Both the position numbers and the translations under genes were made by a program. This document shows positions 1,510 through 63,953 of a stretch of 64,000 nt of DNA, piece by piece. The DNA is from Kofleriaceae bacterium (GTDB lineage Bacteria; Myxococcota_A; Polyangia; Haliangiales; Haliangiaceae), in the NCBI GenBank assembly GCA_051952595.1, contig JBQCJR010000598.1:13384-77383 (forward strand), written 5' to 3'. Under the pieces are notes generated by a model. It searched no databases and had not been told where the DNA came from. It saw only the letters and a list, made by a program, of their open reading frames with translations. Within the stretch, counting starts at the first letter, position 1, and every line of letters begins with the position of its first letter.

Positions 1510-1583
1510 CTTCTCCGTCCTTTGCTGCGCGGCTTCAGCAGCCGCAACGACATGGTGCGCACGGCCCTCACAGTGTCAACCGC

Positions 1584-5711: not shown

Positions 5712-5959
5712 CACCAGCCGCCCTTCTGCTCGCGCGCATGCCGCAGCGAAAAGTCCTTGGCCTGCTGTCGGCACGCCAGCGCAAAGAGCAGCGCGTGCAG
5801 CGCGTGGCCGGACGCGCGGTCCGCCTCGTGGATGCGGCCGGCGCCGCGCTCCTCCTCGGCGTAGTCGCGCAGCTCGCGCGCATACGTCAACTGCTGCCTG
5901 AACTGCGCGTGTGCCTCGACGGCGAGCTCCCCGTAGGTTGGTCCGCTCAGCAGGGACAT
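5711..5959 (-). CDS. hypothetical protein (82 aa)
   Basis: Track ORF with ATG 5959 and GGAGG 5 nt upstream. Its stop forms a TGATG overlap with exonuclease ATG 5711. Confidence 0.7.
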   Translation of the reverse strand: MSLLSGPTYGELAVEAHAQFRQQLTYARELRDYAEEERGAGRIHEADRASGHALHALLFALACRQQAKDFSLRHAREQKGGW

Positions 5960-6003
5960 CCGAACCTCCTCTGTTGCTGACGCTCAGCGCGCCAGTGACG
6001 AGC

Positions 6004-6032
6004 AGCCTACCTCCATCCGCACCGCGTCGCAA
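6004..6032 (-). promoter_or_regulatory. Putative sigma70-type promoter TTGCGA-N17-TAGGCT
   Basis: The -35 is at 6032..6027 and the -10 at 6009..6004 on the minus strand, with 17-nt spacing. The leader contains CGCTGAGCG (5989..5981) before the GGAGG of 5711..5959. Confidence 0.4.
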
Positions 6033-11021: not shown

Positions 11022-11467
11022 GACTCGCTCACCGACGCTGCGGCGCGAGCGCGCGCACGGTCCATGGCGGTCACGAAAGGAACCGGGCTTGGCGCCGAGT
11101 AGGCGAGGAGCGCGTAGCCACCCCCGGCGGAGCGCTGGACGACGGCGAGGCCGTGGGCGCGCGAGGCGATGGCCGCACGGCGCTGCCGGGCCACGTCGGC
11201 GCTCACCCGCTCCTGCCAGCACTCGCCGGCCTTGGTGATGCCCGCTGCAGCCAACGCAGCCTCCGCCTGGGCGATCGCCGTCTGCGCCATGCGCAATGCC
11301 TGCCCGGCCGCGTTGTAGCCCGGCAGCGGGATCCACATCGCCATCGTCCGCATGGCCGCGAAGGTCGTGATCGCTGCCGCGTGGGTTGCAATCATCGCGT
11401 TGATAGCCTCGGGAGGACACGTCGCGCCCGTACCCATGGCGACCTTGAGGTCGAAGAACCCGCTCAT
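11018..11467 (-). CDS. hypothetical protein (149 aa)
   Basis: Track ORF with ATG 11467 and AAGGAG upstream. It is the first gene after promoter module A. Confidence 0.65.
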   Translation of the reverse strand: MSGFFDLKVAMGTGATCPPEAINAMIATHAAAITTFAAMRTMAMWIPLPGYNAAGQALRMAQTAIAQAEAALAAAGITKAGECWQERVSADVARQRRAAIASRAHGLAVVQRSAGGGYALLAYSAPSPVPFVTAMDRARARAAASVSES

Positions 11468-11484: not shown

Positions 11485-11546
11485 GTCGACCTCAGCGGCC
11501 GACATGGAGAACGTATCCTGTGCTCTAACGCTTGTCAACGTTACAG
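11485..11546 (-). promoter_or_regulatory. Promoter/operator/5'-hairpin module A
   Basis: All elements are read on the minus strand:
- Promoter: TTGACA (11538..11533), 17-nt spacer, TACGTT (11515..11510).
- Operator-like inverted repeat: CTCTAACG (11523..11530) / CGTTACAG (11539..11546), flanking the -35.
- Leader hairpin: GTCGGCC-GCTGA-GGTCGAC (11503..11485). Confidence 0.6.
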
Positions 11547-11590
11547 GCTCGCGTGCCCTCCTTCCAGCGTCGCTGCGCCATCCGGCGCCA

Positions 11591-12178
11591 TCACCTTGCG
11601 CGGCGCACGACCCCTTCGGGGACGGTCGGCGGCATCCGCTCCACCTCCGCCGCGAGCACAGCGTCTGCTGCGATGTCGCGGATGATACCGGCGAGCCGTT
11701 CGGCGAACTGCTCTGCCGCATCGTCCGGGCCCTCGAAGGCGCACCATGCCTCCCCCGAGGGAGGACAGACGAAGACCGCGGCACCGTCGTCCAGGTACTC
11801 CACGCGCACCGGCTCCACATGGGGGCGCTCGAGCTCCCGGGTGTGGCTGTCGCGCGGCGCCCCATCCGCCTCGCGAACGCGGCGGAGGACATCGACGGCC
11901 CACCGAAACGAGACGGCGCAGACCTGCACGAGTTCGTGGAAGAGGTGCTCGTCGTCCGTTGCCGCAACCGCCTCTGCGGTCTCCTCGCCGAGCACCGACG
12001 CCCACGTCTCGCGGCCTGCCAGCCGGTCGCTTTCCGCTCTGGCGGCCAGCTCCCACCTTTCTGCGATGACGCCCCCGGTACCGTCGCCACCGGGCGGGCG
12101 CGGACCGTGGAGGCGTCGCGCGCGCCGCGCCTCCTGAAGCACCGACCACATCACCATTCCCATCGCCCACAGCTTCAT
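11591..12178 (-). CDS. hypothetical protein (195 aa), possibly MazG-like
   Basis: This is the most protein-like of three overlapping track ORFs. ATG 12178 forms an ATGA overlap with the upstream stop. The segment LGEETAEAVAA...HELVQVCAVSFRW is weakly MazG-like. Confidence 0.55.
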   Translation of the reverse strand: MKLWAMGMVMWSVLQEARRARRLHGPRPPGGDGTGGVIAERWELAARAESDRLAGRETWASVLGEETAEAVAATDDEHLFHELVQVCAVSFRWAVDVLRRVREADGAPRDSHTRELERPHVEPVRVEYLDDGAAVFVCPPSGEAWCAFEGPDDAAEQFAERLAGIIRDIAADAVLAAEVERMPPTVPEGVVRRAR

Positions 12179-12633
12179 ACGCCTCCGAGCCAGCGCCTGG
12201 CGCTTGCGTTCGTGATCAGCCCATCATCCGTTCGGACGAGGACGCCGGCAAGAACGTGTTGCCGCACCCGCGCCTCGCCCACGCTTCCCAAGGCCGCCGC
12301 CTGGGACGGCGTCAGCGGTCGACCTTCGTTCAGCGCCTGCCGCCCCGCAGCCGCGGTCGCGAGGAGACGAAGCGTCGGGTGGATCTTCAGCGGCTGTTCC
12401 ACCAGGAACATCAGCGCCTTCAGGTCCCTTTCACCCATCACCGCCTGCTCGCCCTTCGCGTACCGCAGCAGTTCGTCAAGCTTTGCGCGGATGCGACCGC
12501 GAACGACAGGAGCCTTGCTCCCCCAGCGCTTCGTCTCCTCGAGCATTTGGTGAATGACCTCGGCCACGTGCGGGGCAAGGAGAGCGCTCGTTAGCCGCTG
12601 GAGGCGCGGCTCTTCTGTTGTGTTCCTGGGCAT
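12175..12633 (-). CDS. hypothetical protein (152 aa)
   Basis: Track ORF with ATG 12633 and GGAGG 3 nt upstream. Confidence 0.65.
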   Translation of the reverse strand: MPRNTTEEPRLQRLTSALLAPHVAEVIHQMLEETKRWGSKAPVVRGRIRAKLDELLRYAKGEQAVMGERDLKALMFLVEQPLKIHPTLRLLATAAAGRQALNEGRPLTPSQAAALGSVGEARVRQHVLAGVLVRTDDGLITNASARRWLGGV

Positions 12634-12640
12634 CGTCCTC

Positions 12641-12802
12641 CTACGCTGCGGCGCGCGAACGCGACGCCCGCCTCATGTCGACCCGGCGCCACCCACGCGC
12701 CATCACGGCGCGGCGCCTCCGGCGAGCCTCGCGGCGGTCCGCATGGCGATCCGCCATCTGATGGGGCTCCGGGTGACGCTCGACTCCGTTCGCGGTTTTC
12801 AT
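12641..12802 (-). CDS. small basic protein (53 aa), not in ORF track
   Basis: Hand translation from ATG 12802 (GGAGAAG upstream): MKTANGVERHPEPHQMADRHADRREARRRRRAVMARGWRRVDMRRASRSRAAA*. It lies immediately downstream of hairpin copy C. Confidence 0.4.
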   Translation of the reverse strand: MKTANGVERHPEPHQMADRHADRREARRRRRAVMARGWRRVDMRRASRSRAAA

Positions 12803-12818
12803 TGTTCTTCTCCTGCTG

Positions 12819-12837
12819 CTCGACCTCAGCGGCCGAG
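12819..12837 (-). repeat. Third copy of the leader hairpin, with a compensatory stem change
   Basis: The minus strand reads CTCGGCC-GCTGA-GGTCGAG. The outer pair is C-G here where copies A and B have G-C. Confidence 0.6.
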
Positions 12838-12936
12838 GTACTTGCGTCCAGTCTTGTCGCTACGCTCGGGCCGCAGCGCCCACCACGTCATGAAGATAAT
12901 GGTGGCGGTCCACCCCAGATGATCCCAGTCGGGCAT
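12826..12936 (-). CDS. small hydrophobic protein (36 aa), not in ORF track
   Basis: ATG 12936 lies 2 nt after the stop of 12939..13166. Sequence: MPDWDHLGWTATIIFMTWWALRPERSDKTGRKYLGR*. Its stop lies inside hairpin copy C. No SD seen. Confidence 0.35.
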   Translation of the reverse strand: MPDWDHLGWTATIIFMTWWALRPERSDKTGRKYLGR

Positions 12937-12938
12937 GC

Positions 12939-13166
12939 TCACGCGGCTTCTTGCACGCGCTGGATGAGCACAGCCTCGGCGCGCGCGAGCACGCGGGGGA
13001 AGCGCACCTCCTGGCCGGCGAACAGCACGCGCTCCACGAGCACGCCATCCCGGCTCACATCCGCTTCCACATTGAACCGCGCCGTCGCCGAGTCCGCAGG
13101 CAACCCAGCCAGAGCGTCCGCCTCGGCGTCCGTGAGGTCCATGTCCATGGGGAAAGTGGTCTTCAT
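12939..13166 (-). CDS. hypothetical protein (75 aa)
   Basis: Track ORF with ATG 13166 and AAGGAG upstream. It is the first gene after promoter module B. Confidence 0.65.
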   Translation of the reverse strand: MKTTFPMDMDLTDAEADALAGLPADSATARFNVEADVSRDGVLVERVLFAGQEVRFPRVLARAEAVLIQRVQEAA

Positions 13167-13179
13167 CTGGCGCTCCTTG

Positions 13180-13242
13180 GTCGACCTCAGCGGCCGACAC
13201 AGAAGAGTCTACGCAGCGCTCTAACGCTCGTCAACGTTAGAG
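13180..13242 (-). promoter_or_regulatory. Promoter/operator/5'-hairpin module B
   Basis: All elements are read on the minus strand:
- Promoter: TTGACG (13234..13229), 17-nt spacer, TAGACT (13211..13206).
- Operator-like perfect inverted repeat: CTCTAACG (13219..13226) / CGTTAGAG (13235..13242).
- Leader hairpin: GTCGGCC-GCTGA-GGTCGAC (13198..13180).
The module overlaps the last codons of 13221..13910. Confidence 0.6.
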
Positions 13243-20133: not shown

Positions 20134-21159
20134 TCAGGTCCCCTGAGTGGATGGCGGCGCGTTGATGGGAGCAGACGCGCCTCCGTCGCGTTGGGCCGGC
20201 ACCGCCGCGCGGTCCTGCTCGTCGCCGATATCGCCCAGCATGTCCCGCGCGGTCGGCACGCGCCCGCCCTCCTCGAGTTGGTTGGACGTCGAGACGGTGA
20301 TGATGTCTTTGGACAGCCCCACCGGGTAGGCGCCGTCCTCGTCCTCGAGGAGCGCCTCGTTCAGCATGTAGTCGCGCGGAACCTGCTTCATGCCGCGCTT
20401 GATGGCGCGCACGATCGCCATCATGTCCGGCCACTCGAACCACGGCCCGGTCCCGGCCCTGGACGACATCCGGATGCGGTCGATCTCCTCGAAGGTCAGG
20501 ACCGCGACCTTCGGTTGCGCGGTCGGCTCCTTCAGGTTCTCGATGAGCGCGTACGCGAACCGGATGGAGCGATAGATCTCGTTGTTGTAGTCGAGCTTCG
20601 CCTGGCGGTCGGCGTTGAACTCTCCGGTGAGGTTGGGCGCCTGCGGCATGCGCCCGCGCTCGGCCTTTTTGTGGTGCACGAACCTCTTGCTTCCCAGCGC
20701 GTAGTCGAACTCGTCGCCCGGGAGCACGACCTCGGCCGACACCTCGTAGCCGCTGCGCTTGGCGATGTTGATGAGCCCACCGGGCCCGGGGATCATCTGC
20801 ACCATCCCCTTGTACGGCACGAGGTACGCCTGATCGCCGATCGGCTCGATCCCCATCCGCGCCGCCTCGAGCACCGCTTCCACCAGCGACTCCAGGTTGA
20901 TCGGCGCCGCGGGCTCGCCGCGGCGCTCGTAGCGCTGCGCGTCGAGCTTGCGGAACTGCTGGCACGCGATCGCCGCCAGCCTGTTCACCATGTGCTGCGC
21001 CGCGGCGCGATCCTTCCACTGGAACAGCGCCTCGAACTCCTTGAAGCGGCCCTTATAGAAAATCCGCTTGAGCTTCTCCTCCTCAGACGGGGCCCGCTCC
21101 TGCGGCTGTGCCTGCGTCTGCGGACGGCCTTCCTGGCCGCGTTGCTGCTGACTGCGCAT
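20134..21159 (-). CDS. recT: RecT-family single-strand annealing protein
   Basis: Track ORF trimmed to ATG 21159 (GGAGG 5 nt upstream). RecT-like segments: GIEPIGDQAYLVPYKGMVQMIPGPGGLINIAKRSGY...GPWFEWPDMMAIVRAIKRGMKQVP. Confidence 0.85.
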   Translation of the reverse strand: MRSQQQRGQEGRPQTQAQPQERAPSEEEKLKRIFYKGRFKEFEALFQWKDRAAAQHMVNRLAAIACQQFRKLDAQRYERRGEPAAPINLESLVEAVLEAARMGIEPIGDQAYLVPYKGMVQMIPGPGGLINIAKRSGYEVSAEVVLPGDEFDYALGSKRFVHHKKAERGRMPQAPNLTGEFNADRQAKLDYNNEIYRSIRFAYALIENLKEPTAQPKVAVLTFEEIDRIRMSSRAGTGPWFEWPDMMAIVRAIKRGMKQVPRDYMLNEALLEDEDGAYPVGLSKDIITVSTSNQLEEGGRVPTARDMLGDIGDEQDRAAVPAQRDGGASAPINAPPSTQGT

Positions 21160-21229
21160 CAAACCTCCATGCTGCTCGCGGTTCTGCACCGCGGATGTCG
21201 TTCGCGCGGCGTCACCCGCGGTGAGATGG

Positions 21230-26771: not shown

Positions 26772-26810
26772 TCGTCGGCGCTGAGCCGACGCAGCAGAAA
26801 GGAAGACGCG

Positions 26811-27923
26811 ATGACCGTTCAAGGAACGAAGCGGCACCTGACGACCGTCGTCAACGTGCCGAGCATCAAGGACCCGATCAAGCGCTCGCCAGGCTTCGAG
26901 AAGAAGGACCTGGCGACCTACAAACTCGACGTCATGGGCCGGTGCGACTTCTCCTGCACCTACTGCTCGAGCGACTGGGGCAACTACCTGCGCATCAACC
27001 GGGAGAAGTTCGCGCAGGCGATCCAGGAGCAGACGGGCCGCGCCGTGAAGCACACGGACGATCACCGGATCACGTTTGTGTGGCCCGATGTCATCGAGCG
27101 GCTGGATGACCAGCTGCGGTCGAAGCCGCGTGGGTGGGGCGCTGGCGAGGTGCTCGTGGTCTCGCAGCTCACGGACGCCTTCAGCCCCGAGCCGCTGAGG
27201 TCCGGGAAGACCGAGACGGCGCTCCGCATGGTGCTGGAGCGGACGAGCTTCAGGATCCGGATCCTGACGAAGAACTCGTGCGTGGGCCTGTCCACGAGGT
27301 GGCGGGACCTCTTCGCGGCGCACCGGGACCGCTTCGTCGTGGGGCTCTCCTGCGGGACTACGGACGACGCATGGGCGAAGCGGGTGGAGATCGGTACGCC
27401 TTCCCCGAGCGCGCGGATCCGCGCCACCAAGGAGCTGCAGGCGGCGGGCGTCCCGACCTTCGCGATGCTCTGCCCCGTGTTCCCGAACATGCTGGAAGGC
27501 GACGCGCTCGAGGTGCTCCTCGATGCGCTCAACCCCAAGGCCGTCGAGACCGTGTGGTTCGAGCCGTACAACGACAGGCAGAACGCGCTCGCGGTCCGCG
27601 CCGGGTACGACGAGGGGTCGTGGTGGTGGAACTGGATGACGCACGTCTACGTGGGCGGCGCGCGTGCGAAGTGGAGCGCGTACGCGGCCGAGCTCTACGA
27701 GCGGGTGCGGCTCATGGCCAAGGCCCAGGGCTGGGCGCACAAGCTGAAGTACCTCCTCTACGAGGACGACATCCAGCCAGAGCACGCTGGCGTCTTCGCT
27801 GGGCTGGAGGGCGTGCTCCTCCAGAGCAAGCCCGGCGCCGATGGCCTGAGCCGGAACAGCGCGATGGCCGCTCTGCAGCGCGAGGCGGGCGCGTCCCGGA
27901 TGGGGAAGGTGGACGATGCCTGA
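26811..27923 (+). CDS. radical SAM protein (COG1533 / SplB-like layout)
   Basis: Track ORF of 370 aa with AAGGAAG upstream. CxxxCxxC motif: C45-DFS-C49-TY-C52. Confidence 0.75.
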   Translation: MTVQGTKRHLTTVVNVPSIKDPIKRSPGFEKKDLATYKLDVMGRCDFSCTYCSSDWGNYLRINREKFAQAIQEQTGRAVKHTDDHRITFVWPDVIERLDDQLRSKPRGWGAGEVLVVSQLTDAFSPEPLRSGKTETALRMVLERTSFRIRILTKNSCVGLSTRWRDLFAAHRDRFVVGLSCGTTDDAWAKRVEIGTPSPSARIRATKELQAAGVPTFAMLCPVFPNMLEGDALEVLLDALNPKAVETVWFEPYNDRQNALAVRAGYDEGSWWWNWMTHVYVGGARAKWSAYAAELYERVRLMAKAQGWAHKLKYLLYEDDIQPEHAGVFAGLEGVLLQSKPGADGLSRNSAMAALQREAGASRMGKVDDA

Positions 27924-45772: not shown

Positions 45773-45940
45773 TCAAGGCACCTGCCGCACGCCCAACACG
45801 TTTTTGGTGCCGAAGATGCGCTTCGCGGCGCGCTCGGCGTCGGCTTGGCTTGCGCCGTAGTACGCCCACTCCCACCACATGCCTTTGGGCGTGCTGCGGA
45901 CGGTGACGAGGAAGTCGAACTTCTGGGTCTGCTGCTCCAT
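45773..45940 (-). CDS. small protein (55 aa), not in ORF track
   Basis: ATG 45940 with GGAG upstream. Sequence: MEQQTQKFDFLVTVRSTPKGMWWEWAYYGASQADAERAAKRIFGTKNVLGVRQVP*. Preferred over the 95-aa track ORF 45697..45984 in another frame. Confidence 0.5.
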   Translation of the reverse strand: MEQQTQKFDFLVTVRSTPKGMWWEWAYYGASQADAERAAKRIFGTKNVLGVRQVP

Positions 45941-45982
45941 GACCGTCTCCTCTTCTGCGCCAGCTCAGCGCCGGCAACAGGC

Positions 45983-46010
45983 ACTATATCTTCTGGCGAA
46001 TAGTTGTCAA
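45983..46010 (-). promoter_or_regulatory. Near-consensus sigma70-type promoter TTGACA-N16-TATAGT
   Basis: The -35 is at 46010..46005 and the -10 at 45988..45983 on the minus strand. The leader contains GCGCTGAGC before the GGAG of 45773..45940. Confidence 0.55.
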
Positions 46011-46157
46011 GCCGTCGACGGTCGGTGCCGGATCCGCGCCTACAAGCGTGTCGCTCCCCGCGATGATCTCGTCGCGGCCGCCGCAGTCCTTACAGGGGAC
46101 TTCGCGTCCGCCACGCCCTTCGCCACGACCGTCACAGCGACGGCACGTGCTCCACAC
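45984..46157 (-). CDS. small DnaJ-type zinc-finger protein (57 aa), not in ORF track
   Basis: Hand translation from GTG 46157: VWSTCRRCDGRGEGRGGREVPCKDCGGRDEII...RQKI*. It has two CxxCxGxG-type motifs. Its 3' end carries the promoter at 45983..46010. Confidence 0.45.
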   Translation of the reverse strand: MWSTCRRCDGRGEGRGGREVPCKDCGGRDEIIAGSDTLVGADPAPTVDGLTTIRQKI

Positions 46158-51805: not shown

Positions 51806-51900
51806 CGGCTGGCGTGCTCCTGATCACCACCGCCTTGACCACGGGGGGCGATGGAGCGACCCTGCATGGTGCCCGCCGCAGAGGTGGGTCAGGAGGTTCC

Positions 51901-52503
51901 ATGGAGCACGCAGCGCGCATCCCGGGTGCCGACCGCAGCAGGGGCGGCCCGGCCAACGACATCGACGAGGACGAGCTCGAGACGGCGTTCTTCGAACGCA
52001 CCAAGATCTCTCCCACGCCGCCGCGGCCGGACGCTGCTCCCGCGCCGGCGCCTTCCGCGTCCAAGCCGGGGCCGCAGCCGATGCCCAGCGGCCCGCCGGT
52101 CATCATCACCATCAAGATGCCGGAGCCGCTCTGCAAGAGCACTGCGGCCGAGTACCAGCGCGTTGCCTCCTTCTACGACGAGATGACGTGCAAGAAGCTC
52201 CGCGCGCAAGGCTTCCCGGCCGCGGTGCTCGTCCACCCGCACTACCTCAAGGTGGAGGTGCACGGCGCGGTCAACGCCCCCATGGCCGCGGAGGACGCCG
52301 AGCCGGCGAGCGACGACCCGCAGCCGATCCCGTGGCTCGCCCACCTGGATCGCGTCCCCTTCCTCGTGTGGATCATCGCGGTCATCACCTGCGCCAGCGT
52401 GGCGATCACCCTCGCCCGACTCGGCGCCCACCCCCTGTGGGCCATGCTTTTCCTGGCCCTGCTCTCGCTCATCGTCCCGTTCATCAGGAGCGCGATTCGA
52501 TGA
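51901..52503 (+). CDS. C-terminally membrane-anchored protein (200 aa)
   Basis: Track ORF trimmed to ATG 51901 (AGGAGG upstream). C-terminal spans: VPFLVWIIAVITCASVAITL and LWAMLFLALLSLIVPFI. Confidence 0.6.
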   Translation: MEHAARIPGADRSRGGPANDIDEDELETAFFERTKISPTPPRPDAAPAPAPSASKPGPQPMPSGPPVIITIKMPEPLCKSTAAEYQRVASFYDEMTCKKLRAQGFPAAVLVHPHYLKVEVHGAVNAPMAAEDAEPASDDPQPIPWLAHLDRVPFLVWIIAVITCASVAITLARLGAHPLWAMLFLALLSLIVPFIRSAIR

Positions 52504-52804: not shown

Positions 52805-52878
52805 AGCGCGGTGGAGCAGGCTGGAAGCTCGGCGGGCTCATAACCTGTAGGTCGCAGGTTCAAATCCTGCCCGCGCTA
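52805..52878 (+). tRNA. tRNA-Met(CAT) (elongator Met, or Ile2 if lysidine-modified)
   Basis: 74-nt cloverleaf:
- Acceptor AGCGCGG/CCGCGCT, discriminator A, no encoded CCA.
- D stem GAGC/GCTC.
- Anticodon stem GCGGG/CCTGT, loop CTCATAA.
- T arm GCAGG-TTCAAAT-CCTGC. Confidence 0.85.
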
Positions 52879-53035
52879 CTGGGGGTCCGGGAACCGGGAT
52901 GACCGGCCGGCGGAAAGGAGACGGAGAGGGTTCTTGCTCCCGTCCGCCCCCGCAATCTTCGAGGCCCAACAGAGCGAGATGGGCGCCGCTCACGGCGCTC
53001 GCCGGCTCATCACTGGCGGGCCCGTCGTCTTTCCT

Positions 53036-53119
53036 GCGCCGCTGGCGAAACTGGCAGACGCGCCGGCCTCAACCCCCGGTGCCCTGATGGGCGTGGTGGT
53101 TCAACTCCACCGCGGCGCA
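53036..53119 (+). tRNA. tRNA-Leu(CAA), type II, with atypical anticodon loop
   Basis: 84-nt type II structure:
- Acceptor GCGCCGC/GCGGCGC.
- D stem GCG/CGC.
- Anticodon arm CCGGC-CTCAACC-CCCGG, with a C-C mismatch at 31-39 and C at position 37.
- Variable arm GCCC-TGAT-GGGC.
- T arm GGTGG-TTCAACT-CCACC. Confidence 0.75.
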
Positions 53120-53124
53120 CCGCA

Positions 53125-53196
53125 CGAGTTCATGCCACAAGGCGTGGCGCCGGCTTTGGGTGCCGGAGACGCCGGGTTCGATTCCCGGGAACTCGA
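53125..53196 (+). tRNA. tRNA-Pro(TGG)
   Basis: 72-nt cloverleaf:
- Acceptor CGAGTTC/GAACTCG.
- D stem GCCA/TGGC.
- Anticodon arm CCGGC-TTTGGGT-GCCGG.
- T arm CCGGG-TTCGATT-CCCGG. Confidence 0.85.
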
Positions 53197-53266
53197 CCGA
53201 CACAGCCTATCCCGCGCGCACTGGCGTGCGGCAGCCTCGTTCCGACATCATGGTACGGTGCCCACC

Positions 53267-58541: not shown

Positions 58542-59111
58542 TCACGCCAGCCCGCTCTTCCTGATGTCGGACTCAATCTCCTTCCAGACCGCCTCGGTCA
58601 GGTCGAAGGCGAAGTCGACATCCTGGAAGAAGCAGCGGTCGTGATAGTCGGTCTGGCTGTCCGAGCGGTCGTAGTTGTACGGCGTGACGATCGCGGTCGC
58701 CGCGTCGAGGATCCTCTGGCCCCGCTCCGAGTAGCGCTTGAGGCCGCTGAACCTGTGCGGGTTGCGCAGGTACGCCTCGATGAAGCGCGGGTTGAGGATG
58801 GGCATGCCGCGGTCGGGGACGCTGGTGATGCGCACGTCGATCGCGGCGCTGTGGGTGGCGTAGCGCGCCCGCACCGAGATCGCGCAGCCGAACAGCGCGT
58901 GCTTCGGATCCTTCGTCGCCGCGCGCAGCTCCTGCCGGATGAGCTTGGCGGTCTCGGAGTTCTTCCGCTTGGGGTCGCACTTCGAGCCCTTCCAGGGCTC
59001 CTCGGCCACCTTGGCCATGCGCTGTTCTTCGGCGTTCCGAGCGCGGTCAGCCTGAGCGTCGGCCACGTTCGTGTTCGCTGGCGCAACAACCATTTCGGTG
59101 CAGTCGAGCAT
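58542..59111 (-). CDS. hypothetical protein (189 aa), possibly LPD29-type domain
   Basis: Track ORF 58542..59882 trimmed to ATG 59111 (GGAGAAGGA upstream). The segment SETAKLIRQELRAATKDP...CAISVRARYATHSAAIDVRITSVP resembles polyvalent-protein-associated domain proteins, from memory only. Confidence 0.5.
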   Translation of the reverse strand: MLDCTEMVVAPANTNVADAQADRARNAEEQRMAKVAEEPWKGSKCDPKRKNSETAKLIRQELRAATKDPKHALFGCAISVRARYATHSAAIDVRITSVPDRGMPILNPRFIEAYLRNPHRFSGLKRYSERGQRILDAATAIVTPYNYDRSDSQTDYHDRCFFQDVDFAFDLTEAVWKEIESDIRKSGLA

Positions 59112-59130
59112 CGTCCTTCTCCTGCGGCAC

Positions 59131-59183
59131 CTCAGCGGCGCCGTCGACGCTGAGACTATGGCACCCGTGCCACGGTCTGTCAA
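59131..59183 (-). promoter_or_regulatory. Putative promoter TTGACA-N17-CATAGT plus leader hairpin
   Basis: The -35 is at 59183..59178 and the -10 at 59160..59155 on the minus strand. Inverted repeat CTCAGCG (59131..59137) / CGCTGAG (59148..59154). The leader contains GCCGCTGAGGT, as in modules A to C. Confidence 0.45.
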
Positions 59184-59255
59184 CGGGTCATCGACGCTTC
59201 TCTCAACCAGCGGCAGCGCCAGCCGGCGCCACCCCATCCCACCAGGAGCAACAGC

Positions 59256-62838: not shown

Positions 62839-63369
62839 CCGGGCGTGCTCCTCCTCGAGCACGGCTTCCTCGAGCGCCGCGTCTTCCTCCCCATCCACCG
62901 CGATGCGGAGCTTCACCGCGACCTCGCGCAGATCCCCCCTGATGCGCGCGCCGGAGACGGAGCCGCCCAGGCGGATGCCATCGAGCCCCGGGTTCCGCTT
63001 CCCAGCGCGGTGCATGCGCCGCACGTACGCCTTCTCCGCGTCCAGCAGCGCCCGCCAGTCCTCCTTGGAGCCGCCGGGTGTTGGGTCGAAGCCATCCCAG
63101 TAGACAGAGTGCCCTCCGGGCCAGAGACCACGAACGACGATGGTTGCGGCGTACGAGATCGACCGCCGCGGGAGCCGCTTGCTGTACTCCTCGAGCGCCT
63201 CGTCCTGGTCGTCGGTGATGAAAACGCACCTCCACATGTCGCCCCGCCGACCCGAGTGCCGCATCACGTAGAAGCGATCGTGGAGTCGCTCGTCGGTTCC
63301 GGCCATCGCGCGCGTGATGGCGTCGACGTCCTCCCTGCTGAGCTGAGAGCGTCGGGGCATCAGCGGCAT
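62827..63369 (-). CDS. hypothetical protein (180 aa) coupled to the sigma factor gene
   Basis: ATG 63369 forms a TGATG overlap with the sigma stop; ATG 63378 in the same frame is also possible. Confidence 0.6.
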   Translation of the reverse strand: MPLMPRRSQLSREDVDAITRAMAGTDERLHDRFYVMRHSGRRGDMWRCVFITDDQDEALEEYSKRLPRRSISYAATIVVRGLWPGGHSVYWDGFDPTPGGSKEDWRALLDAEKAYVRRMHRAGKRNPGLDGIRLGGSVSGARIRGDLREVAVKLRIAVDGEEDAALEEAVLEEEHARSGS

Positions 63370-63379
63370 CAGCGGCATC
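63356..63379. repeat. 9-bp tandem repeat GGCATCAGC x2 plus partial third unit at the gene junction
   Basis: Units at 63356..63364, 63365..63373 and 63374..63379. On the minus strand this reads ATGCCGCTG ATGCCGCTG ATGCC, giving MPLMPLMP and containing the sigma factor stop codon. Confidence 0.9.
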
Positions 63380-63953
63380 GGTAAGGCGCCAGCGCGCGAG
63401 CAAGGGAACTCAGGGCCCGCTTCCTCACCTTCCACAGCGTGCACTCGGGCCGGTTCATGAGGATGCTGACGTCGTGCATCTCCACCTCGTCGAGGTCATG
63501 CCGTACGAGCACCTCGCGCTCCTCTGGCTGCAGCCGCATCATGGCCGCGCGCAGCGCACGAAGTTGCACATCAGTGGTCAGCGCGTCTTCCACGTCGACC
63601 TCGTGCGCTCCGAGCTTCACCCTCGCGCGCGGGCGGTCACGCCGCACCGCGGCCCGCTCCTCGTGCTTCAGCTTCTGGTACCGGGTGATGGCGTGCAGCC
63701 ATGACCGCGCGTCGGTGAGGACCGGAGCGTAGGTGTCGAAGCTCTTGAAGGCGCCGAGGAGGACTTCCTGGCTGACATCATCCACGGCGGACTCCTCCAA
63801 GCCCAGCCTGCGCAGCCACCGCTTCACCTCGGCGGGCCTCGCCGGGCTGAAGAGGTACGCCCGGGCCTTGGCCTTGGTGTTGACGGGGCGGCTTCGCTTC
63901 CGGCGAGCGCGCTCCGCTGACTCGGGCTTCCGCTCTCGCTTCTGGGCGCTCAT
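63369..63953 (-). CDS. ECF-type sigma-70 family sigma factor
   Basis: Track ORF of 194 aa with GGAGG upstream of ATG 63953. Region 2-like: VDDVSQEVLLGAFKSFDTY...SWLHAITRY. Region 4-like: LQPEEREVLVRHDLDEVEMHDVSILMNRPECTLWKVRKRAL. Confidence 0.8.
   Translation of the reverse strand: MSAQKRERKPESAERARRKRSRPVNTKAKARAYLFSPARPAEVKRWLRRLGLEESAVDDVSQEVLLGAFKSFDTYAPVLTDARSWLHAITRYQKLKHEERAAVRRDRPRARVKLGAHEVDVEDALTTDVQLRALRAAMMRLQPEEREVLVRHDLDEVEMHDVSILMNRPECTLWKVRKRALSSLARALAPYRCR

Follow-up and report, generated by a model that had tools for sequence, protein, structure and literature searches.

Hairpins at the 5' ends of bacterial transcripts are known as stabilizers, including the hairpin in the ompA 5' untranslated region of Escherichia coli and the Bacillus 5' stem-loops that protect against RNase J; these act through structure alone, with no conserved loop. 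In phages, stem-loops and repeats in front of early genes have been described in several forms. The T4-type phages RB49 and phi1 carry promoter-early stem-loop (PeSL) cassettes (Arbiol et al. 2010, PMC2839356), whose stem-loops have G-tract/C-tract stems, vary in position, lie mostly inside or upstream of the promoter, and have been shown to terminate transcription; the cassettes are kept as sequence, so that recombination is possible (PMC2839356). The Cluster K mycobacteriophages carry the repeats SAS and ESAS (Pope et al. 2011, PMC3203893). SAS is a linear 13-nucleotide (nt) motif, GGGATAGGAGCCC, which overlaps the Shine-Dalgarno (SD) sequence; the inverted repeats of ESAS show no covariation, and the authors read them as DNA-binding sites. 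For SAS, a role in translation initiation is suspected (PMC3203893). The boxB pentaloop of phage P22 (GACAA) has a solved, GNRA-like fold in which the third base is looped out (PMC12550061). Here we describe a recurrent hairpin leader in a 64,000-nt stretch of DNA ("the window") from contig JBQCJR010000598.1 of a Kofleriaceae bacterium (assembly GCA_051952595.1). Judged from its sequence, this RNA leader is a real and phage-specific signal, of a general kind already known from other phages.

The window comprises bases 13384 to 77383 of the 87,993-bp contig, and the surrounding metagenome-assembled genome amounts to 8.3 Mb. The contig encodes phage-type proteins (i.e., RecT, an exonuclease, DnaB, DNA methylases, a Mom-like protein, and an integrase), carries terminase, portal, and capsid genes at 78 to 86 kb, and is evidently a phage or prophage of a myxobacterium. 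Coordinates below are those of the window unless the contig is named.

A recurrent hairpin leader on the contig

Scanning for any stem around GCTGA, and then allowing one change in the loop, led to the identification of 13 leader copies on the whole contig, 10 of which are inside the window. Eleven copies (8 in the window) have a GCUGA loop, and the other two have a GCAGA loop (one at 51871 and a looser one at 21194, in the leader of recT). Each unit consists of a 7-nt arm, a GC(U/A)GA loop, a second 7-nt arm, CA, an SD sequence, and a start codon, in this order. The arms are 7 nt long throughout, and all 13 copies run in the same direction as the gene downstream. The distance from stem to start codon is 11 to 19 nt, and the hairpin ends 2 to 6 nt before the SD. 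The eight GCTGA hairpins in the window have seven pairs each, followed by CA, SD, and start codon. The CA dinucleotide lies directly 3' of the stem in every GCUGA copy (11) and in one of the two with GCAGA and is displaced by one base in the recT variant; a U-tract 3' of the stem is absent. The copies in the window and the open reading frames (ORFs; lengths in amino acids [aa]) that they precede are as follows.

1528..1579, minus strand: leader unit with TTGACA (1579..1574), a weak -10, hairpin UGCGGCU-GCUGA-AGCCGCG (1546..1528), CA, SD, and ATG at 1509 (268-aa ORF)
5977..6032, minus strand: leader unit with TTGCGA-17-TAGGCT (6032..6004), hairpin CUGGCGC-GCUGA-GCGUCAG (5995..5977), CA, SD, and ATG at 5959 (82-aa ORF)
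11485..11503, minus strand: hairpin A, identical to hairpin B, 6 nt after the -10, then CAGCAAGGAG (cagcAAGGAG) and ATG at 11467 (149-aa ORF)
12819..12837, minus strand: hairpin C, CUCGGCC-GCUGA-GGUCGAG, intergenic and without a promoter, then CAGCAGGAG and ATG at 12802
13180..13198, minus strand: hairpin B, GUCGGCC-GCUGA-GGUCGAC, 7 nt after the -10, then CAAGGAG and ATG at 13166 (75-aa ORF)
21176..21194, minus strand: looser variant CCGCGGU-GCAGA-ACCGCGA with 6/7 pairs, located in the leader of recT roughly 35 nt past a putative -10, then GCAGCAUGGAGG and ATG at 21159
26773..26791, plus strand: hairpin CGUCGGC-GCUGA-GCCGACG, intergenic, 1 nt past the dnaB stop, then CA, SD, and ATG at 26811 (370-aa ORF, PHROG phrog_13321, function unknown)
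45958..46010, minus strand: leader unit with TTGACA-16-TATAGT (46010..45983), hairpin UGCCGGC-GCUGA-GCUGGCG (45976..45958), CA, SD, and ATG at 45940 (55-aa ORF)
51871..51889, plus strand: variant GCCCGCC-GCAGA-GGUGGGU with 7 pairs, then CAGGAGG and ATG at 51901 (200-aa ORF); promoter uncertain
59125..59183, minus strand: leader unit with TTGACA-17-CATAGT (59183..59155), hairpin CGGCGCC-GCUGA-GGUGCCG (59143..59125), CAGGAG, and ATG at 59111 (189-aa ORF)

The genes downstream of the hairpins matched no Pfam families. Next to hairpin C is a small ORF of 36 aa (12826 to 12936, minus strand) whose product has a hydrophobic core (MPDWDHLGWTATIIFMTWWAL...). It begins 2 nt past the 75-aa ORF's stop codon and terminates with the UGA of the hairpin loop, so that a ribosome finishing there would melt this hairpin. 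A general use of the loop UGA as a stop codon for upstream mini-ORFs was considered and rejected; copy C is the only one with the UGA in frame, and UGA is missing from the GCAGA loops.

Selection on the structure of the leader RNA

Across the 13 copies, 88 of the 91 stem positions are paired on the sense strand (75 Watson-Crick and 13 G-U pairs, with 3 mismatches), compared with 15 mismatches on the antisense strand, on which the G-U pairs are lost. This asymmetry identifies the sense-strand RNA, rather than a DNA palindrome, as the probable object of selection. In an alignment of 12 copies, 97.6% of the cells are paired, and double (i.e., compensatory) changes are found at all seven stem pairs; control alignments in which the partner was slid by 1 to 3 columns gave 30 to 45% pairing. 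The stem sequence itself is free to vary, with 12 distinct 5' arms among the 13 copies and a mean identity of 0.47 at stem positions. Four of the five loop bases are constant in all 13 copies and only base 3 varies, and the CA is constant in the 12 aligned copies. Selection thus appears to act on the structure of the leader RNA.

The hairpin is also concentrated on the contig. The 17-nt hairpin core is present in three exact copies in the window, with no further exact copy in the 8.3-Mb genome; with up to three mismatches allowed, the window contains five matches against 1.0 expected, a number that no shuffle reached. When pentaloop hairpins with at least seven pairs were ranked by loop, GCTGA came first on the contig (9 copies, compared with 4 for the next loop) and 227th in the rest of the genome. 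Of the GCTGA sites, 9/274 on the contig and 43/21,061 elsewhere in the genome form all seven pairs (Fisher P = 2e-8; length alone predicts 0.46). In a stem-blind test, sites were chosen by their context only (GCTGA-N7-CA followed by an SD and a start codon); 8 of the 10 such sites on the contig have six or seven pairs, whereas none of the 33 sites outside the contig exceeds five.

The hairpins have predicted energies between -9.5 and -12.9 kcal/mol, and folding predictions recover the hairpin in 12 of the 13 leaders. In eight leaders, the SD is mostly unpaired (predicted unpaired probability of at least 0.56). The leader at 59143 has a CUCAGCG just past its -10 (59148 to 59154, minus strand) that exactly complements the loop and closing pair (CGCUGAG), and an alternative pairing is possible in that leader only.

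A preliminary description of the stretch had rested its proposal of selection on structure on three hairpins, the third of which (12819..12837) differs in its outer pair (C-G instead of G-C). That change was verified, and the proposal gained strength with 13 copies rather than 3 and with compensatory changes at all seven pairs. A further suggestion, that CGCTGAG is a motif shared by leaders, failed for the linear motif (32 occurrences observed versus 28.8 expected) but was borne out in the leaders downstream of the three additional promoter-like sites for which it had been noted (6004..6032, 45983..46010, and 59155..59183), all of which carry full 7-bp hairpins; CGCTGAG represents the loop and closing pair, and the stems differ between these leaders. 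The specificity claimed for the element was confirmed by a covariance model of the hairpin, of which the top 11 matches in the whole genome are all on this contig, the next ones being in coding DNA without an SD.

Promoter context of the hairpins

Nine copies begin 5 to 11 nt past the -10 of a sigma-70-like promoter, and two copies are intergenic. Viewed from the promoters, 7 of the 11 TTGAC-N16-18-nAnnnT sites on the contig have a hairpin 5 to 11 nt after the -10, among them all four sites that combine TTGACA with a -10 scoring 4 or more, and two further hairpin copies follow TTGCGA-17-TAGGCT and TTGAGG-17-CACAAT. With this spacing, the hairpin would be placed at the very 5' end of the transcript. 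If transcription begins about 7 nt past the -10, the first nucleotide of the RNA would fall anywhere from about 7 nt upstream of the stem to the second stem base, with no more than three unpaired 5' bases in most copies. The outermost pair is mismatched or a wobble in four of the six copies with a -10 at 5 to 7 nt and is C-G in all five copies that are either 8 to 11 nt from the -10 or intergenic. This pattern is the one expected for transcription starting at the stem edge; it is suggestive only, because the numbers are small.

Searches for the leader outside the contig

The motif was not found in the remaining 8.2 Mb of the genome. Among 138 genomes of the family, including this one, the covariance model yielded only scattered single look-alikes inside coding regions, and a 15-mer search likewise yielded coding look-alikes only. 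DNA similarity searches against the family genomes and a phage database returned nothing. An exact pattern of hairpin and SD matched only unrelated coding sequences in viral, genome, and metagenome collections, and a degenerate pattern (loop, CAG, SD, and ATG) was run on viral contigs, where none of the 118 stretches inspected among the matches listed was convincing. The phage terminase has no close relatives, and six loci of its best relatives lack a recurrent hairpin leader. A search of the window against Rfam detected only tRNAs at the gathering threshold, and the hairpins remained unmatched even at an E value of ≤10. No candidate was found for a small RNA with a complementary UCAGC loop.

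A palindrome over the -35 of modules A and B

Hairpins A and B are each part of a larger module, in which a palindrome with an 8-nt spacer (N8) is centered on the -35.

11510..11538, minus strand: module A, promoter-like TTGACA-17-TACGTT
11523..11546, minus strand: module A, palindrome CTGTAACG-TTGACAAG-CGTTAGAG (N8 spacer), centered on the -35, with one mismatch, in the left arm; intergenic; candidate operator
13206..13234, minus strand: module B, promoter-like TTGACG-17-TAGACT
13219..13242, minus strand: module B, palindrome CTCTAACG-TTGACGAG-CGTTAGAG (N8 spacer), centered on the -35 and overlapping the last codons of the upstream DUF488 gene; candidate operator

The promoters, palindromes, and hairpins of both modules were all recovered where the preliminary description had placed them on the minus strand; its one misplacement was the mismatch of the palindrome, which it had put in the right arm and which belongs to the left arm of module A. 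The 24-bp palindrome over the -35 is confined to these two modules. As a 21-nt palindrome, it has two copies in the window versus 0 expected, and the rest of the genome has none. No palindrome of this type is present in the divergent XRE/recT control region. Between A and B, the palindrome is identical at 22 of 24 positions and the hairpin at 19 of 19, whereas the approximately 20 bases between them are only about half identical, a pattern that recent duplication alone is inadequate to produce. It is plausible that the 24-bp palindrome is the operator of a dimeric repressor that would occlude the -35 and co-regulate the two tandem promoters.

Two other hairpin promoters have palindromes of different sequence, which were detected by eye only: CCGTCGACGG just upstream of the -35 at 46010 (46011 to 46025, minus strand) and ACCCGT-N14-ACGGGT over the -35 and spacer at 59183 (59160 to 59190, minus strand). 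These may be operators of other specificities.

Function of the leader and alternative explanations

We cautiously regard as probable a function in which the 5'-leader hairpin acts on mRNA stability or translation and its loop is read by a factor, with the A/B palindrome binding a repressor. The hairpin would cap the 5' ends of early transcripts against 5'-end-dependent decay (of the RNase E or RNase J type) and would give all first genes one common, unstructured ribosome-binding context. A phage or host factor with sequence specificity would recognize the constant loop and CA and tune stability or translation, and at modules A and B, a dimeric repressor on the palindrome would co-regulate the two tandem promoters. 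By analogy with P22 boxB, the GC(U/A)GA loop could fold in a GNRA-like manner, with the third base flipped out. That the stem is kept as structure and the loop and CA as sequence points to a specific RNA reader.

Several observations weigh against this reading. All of the covariation comes from copies within one genome, partly gathered by a search that itself sought stems; intragenomic copies were used because no homologous element with the motif was found in the searches described above. The start sites and the 5'-terminal position of the hairpin are deduced from its spacing to the -10. For two to four copies no promoter is adjacent, and there capping of the 5' end would be insufficient as the sole role unless the RNA is processed at that point. 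In module A, a pairing between the hairpin's 3' arm and the coding start, UUCGACCUCAAGGUCGCC (approximately 11441 to 11457, minus strand), is predicted to compete, leaving the canonical hairpin a probability of 0.02 in that leader only. A candidate RNA-binding domain was not detected in the genes behind the hairpins. The operator idea depends on two copies, possibly of recent common ancestry.

A rather unlikely alternative, albeit a coherent one, is a translational operator, in which a phage protein bound to the hairpin would switch the translation of the 13 genes jointly by blocking or recruiting the 30S subunit, any effect on stability being secondary. Models for such control are the MS2/PP7 coat protein, T4 RegA, and Mu Com. 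The constancy of the loop and 3' CA amid drifting stems fits this explanation, as do the end of the hairpin 2 to 6 nt before the SD, i.e., within the ribosome footprint, and the intergenic copies, which hold the same geometry without a promoter. However, no RNA-binding domain was evident in the phage proteins scanned, the SD and start codon are outside the hairpin, and the tight spacing to the -10 (5 to 11 nt in nine copies) is not required by such a model.

Processive antitermination of the N/boxB type is quite unlikely. Under this explanation, the hairpins would be nut-like sites, and an arginine-rich peptide would ride RNA polymerase through terminators of the early operons; the peptide in question is encoded next to hairpin C.

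12641..12802, minus strand: 53-aa arginine-rich ORF (16 Arg, pI 12), directly behind hairpin C; speculative candidate hairpin-binding factor

This ORF contains RRRRRAVMARGW and begins 16 nt past hairpin C, the sites are in leaders just downstream of early promoters, and the loop varies at its third position only, which is compatible with the fold of P22 boxB GACAA (PMC12550061). Nevertheless, there are 13 sites rather than 2, all linked to an SD, with 7-bp rather than 5-bp stems. A boxA-like element is absent, and the aligned flanks (2 nt upstream and 4 nt downstream) conserve only the CA; most copies have no room for an upstream boxA because the transcript would start at the stem. The 53-aa ORF was unmatched to N peptides or other chains in the PDB and had no homologue among 1.84 billion representative proteins, and small arginine-rich ORFs are not rare on this contig of 70% GC (5/119). 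Intrinsic-type terminator-like sites in the early region (10 versus 5.8 ± 2.7) are not above chance. We keep our confidence in an N/boxB-like explanation low because the ORF is unmatched, such ORFs are not rare, and neither a boxA nor a detectable terminator set is present. It is correspondingly doubtful, if conceivable, that the 53-aa peptide binds a GNRA-like pentaloop on the 13 leaders, as a pair that would have arisen outside the lambdoid phages, and antiterminates or gates the translation of all early operons.

It is very unlikely that the units are mobile cassettes like the PeSLs, i.e., portable combinations of promoter, stem-loop, and SD that serve as recombination sites for shuffling orphan genes, or as terminators of read-through from upstream, and have no specific RNA function. 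The layout is the same as that of the PeSLs, in front of genes mostly without known relatives (PMC2839356), and a 1.7-kb block of small ORFs is bordered by hairpins A, B, and C, which are nearly the same in sequence. Beyond these three, however, stems that are 47% identical offer too little for homologous exchange. The hairpin is always past the -10, a position in which a terminator would cut off the transcripts of its own promoter, and it has no U-tract 3' of the stem. Covariation, strand-specific G-U pairs, and the constant loop all point to selection on RNA.

An operator for a DNA-binding protein at +1 to +20, formed by the 7-5-7 inverted repeat, is highly improbable. The inverted repeat does lie just past the -10 in nine copies, but the arms are unconserved and the asymmetric spacer is conserved, the reverse of a protein operator; moreover, the 13 G-U pairs turn into mismatches on the other strand, all 13 copies are sense oriented, and two have no promoter. 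An origin by chance in GC-rich DNA, or as neutral leftovers of a duplication, is practically negligible as an explanation. GC-rich coding DNA does give scattered look-alikes (e.g., GCC GCC GAG CTG GCG CAG), but those outside the contig have no context of SD and start codon, and neither the enrichment (P = 2e-8) nor the compensatory changes at all seven stem pairs fit such an origin.

Phage lineage and other genes on the contig

The phage evidently belongs to a lineage without described relatives. Its terminase (terminase region, contig 78490 to 86320, past the window end) is at best 34% identical to those of isolated phages, and the closest metagenomic protein is 53% identical, the maximum among 5.8 billion proteins. 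A homologue search with a 195-aa early/neighboring protein was empty, and relatives of RecT were absent from viral contigs and from the genomes of the order that were searched. The phage DnaB (25269 to 26771, plus strand) shares approximately 62% of its residues with chromosomal DnaB proteins from Sorangium, Chondromyces, and Polyangium, a similarity that assigns the host to the Polyangiaceae. The homologue search retrieved only chromosomal helicases of the host lineage and no related phage; the gene looks like a capture from that lineage.

The window also contains a cluster of three tRNA genes (Met-CAT, Leu-CAA, and Pro-TGG; 52805 to 53198, plus strand). In addition, the phage encodes an ECF-type sigma factor (Sigma70_r2, E = 2e-6). 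Its gene is the second in a unit (63369 to 63953, minus strand, and contig 77333 to 77803, just past the window end) whose first gene (156 aa) has a hairpin leader. The late structural genes, which start approximately 80 nt away on the opposite strand, may be driven by this sigma factor.

Phages of the Polyangiaceae (Sorangium-type myxobacteria) are almost unstudied. The nine hairpin-marked promoters offer a ready map of the early transcription units of one such phage, and the 60- to 70-bp part made up of promoter, leader, and SD is a possible expression cassette for myxobacteria, which are hard to engineer. The element also separates features that are usually confounded in phage cassettes, as the stem is kept as structure only and the loop and CA as sequence.

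Comparison with known systems

The layout of the PeSL cassettes, in which a repeated strong early promoter of host type is followed by a stem-loop, SD, and start codon, in phage-specific form and before nonstructural genes mostly without relatives, is shared by nine units of this contig. Here, in contrast, the hairpin always follows the -10 and would be transcribed; its stem sequence is free (47% identity) with pairing kept, and its loop and 3' CA are constant. The terminator or attenuator role of the PeSLs does not appear to extend to these hairpins, which lie past their own -10 and have no U-tract. PeSLs are conserved in sequence over approximately 100 bp and mark places where related phages have gained or lost genes. 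On this contig only hairpins A, B, and C are near-identical, the other stems being 47% identical, and no related phage was found for such a comparison.

SAS/ESAS are likewise phage-specific repeats (11 to 19 copies) that stand a few bases before the starts of nonstructural genes in one orientation and are essentially absent from the host. The present element differs in being a covarying RNA hairpin upstream of the SD, and GGGATAGGAGCCC does not occur in the sequences before the starts. With the nut/boxB sites and N proteins of lambda, P22, and phi21, it shares a short hairpin in early leaders, a pentaloop of the form G...A with a variable base 3, and a small arginine-rich ORF beside one copy. 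It departs from them in its 13 SD-tied copies, its 7-bp stems, an ORF unrelated in sequence to N, and its myxobacterial host, and neither a boxA nor terminators were identified.

The 5'-terminal stabilizers also consist of a stable hairpin with few or no unpaired 5' bases just upstream of the ribosome-binding site, an arrangement that a -10 at 5 to 11 nt in nine copies fits. Here, however, the loop and flanking CA are constant, and some copies are internal to the transcript. Leaders of this kind are therefore known, and what is new, as far as the sequences indicate, is the combination of a free stem and a constant, apparently GNRA-like loop in an uncharted myxobacterial phage.

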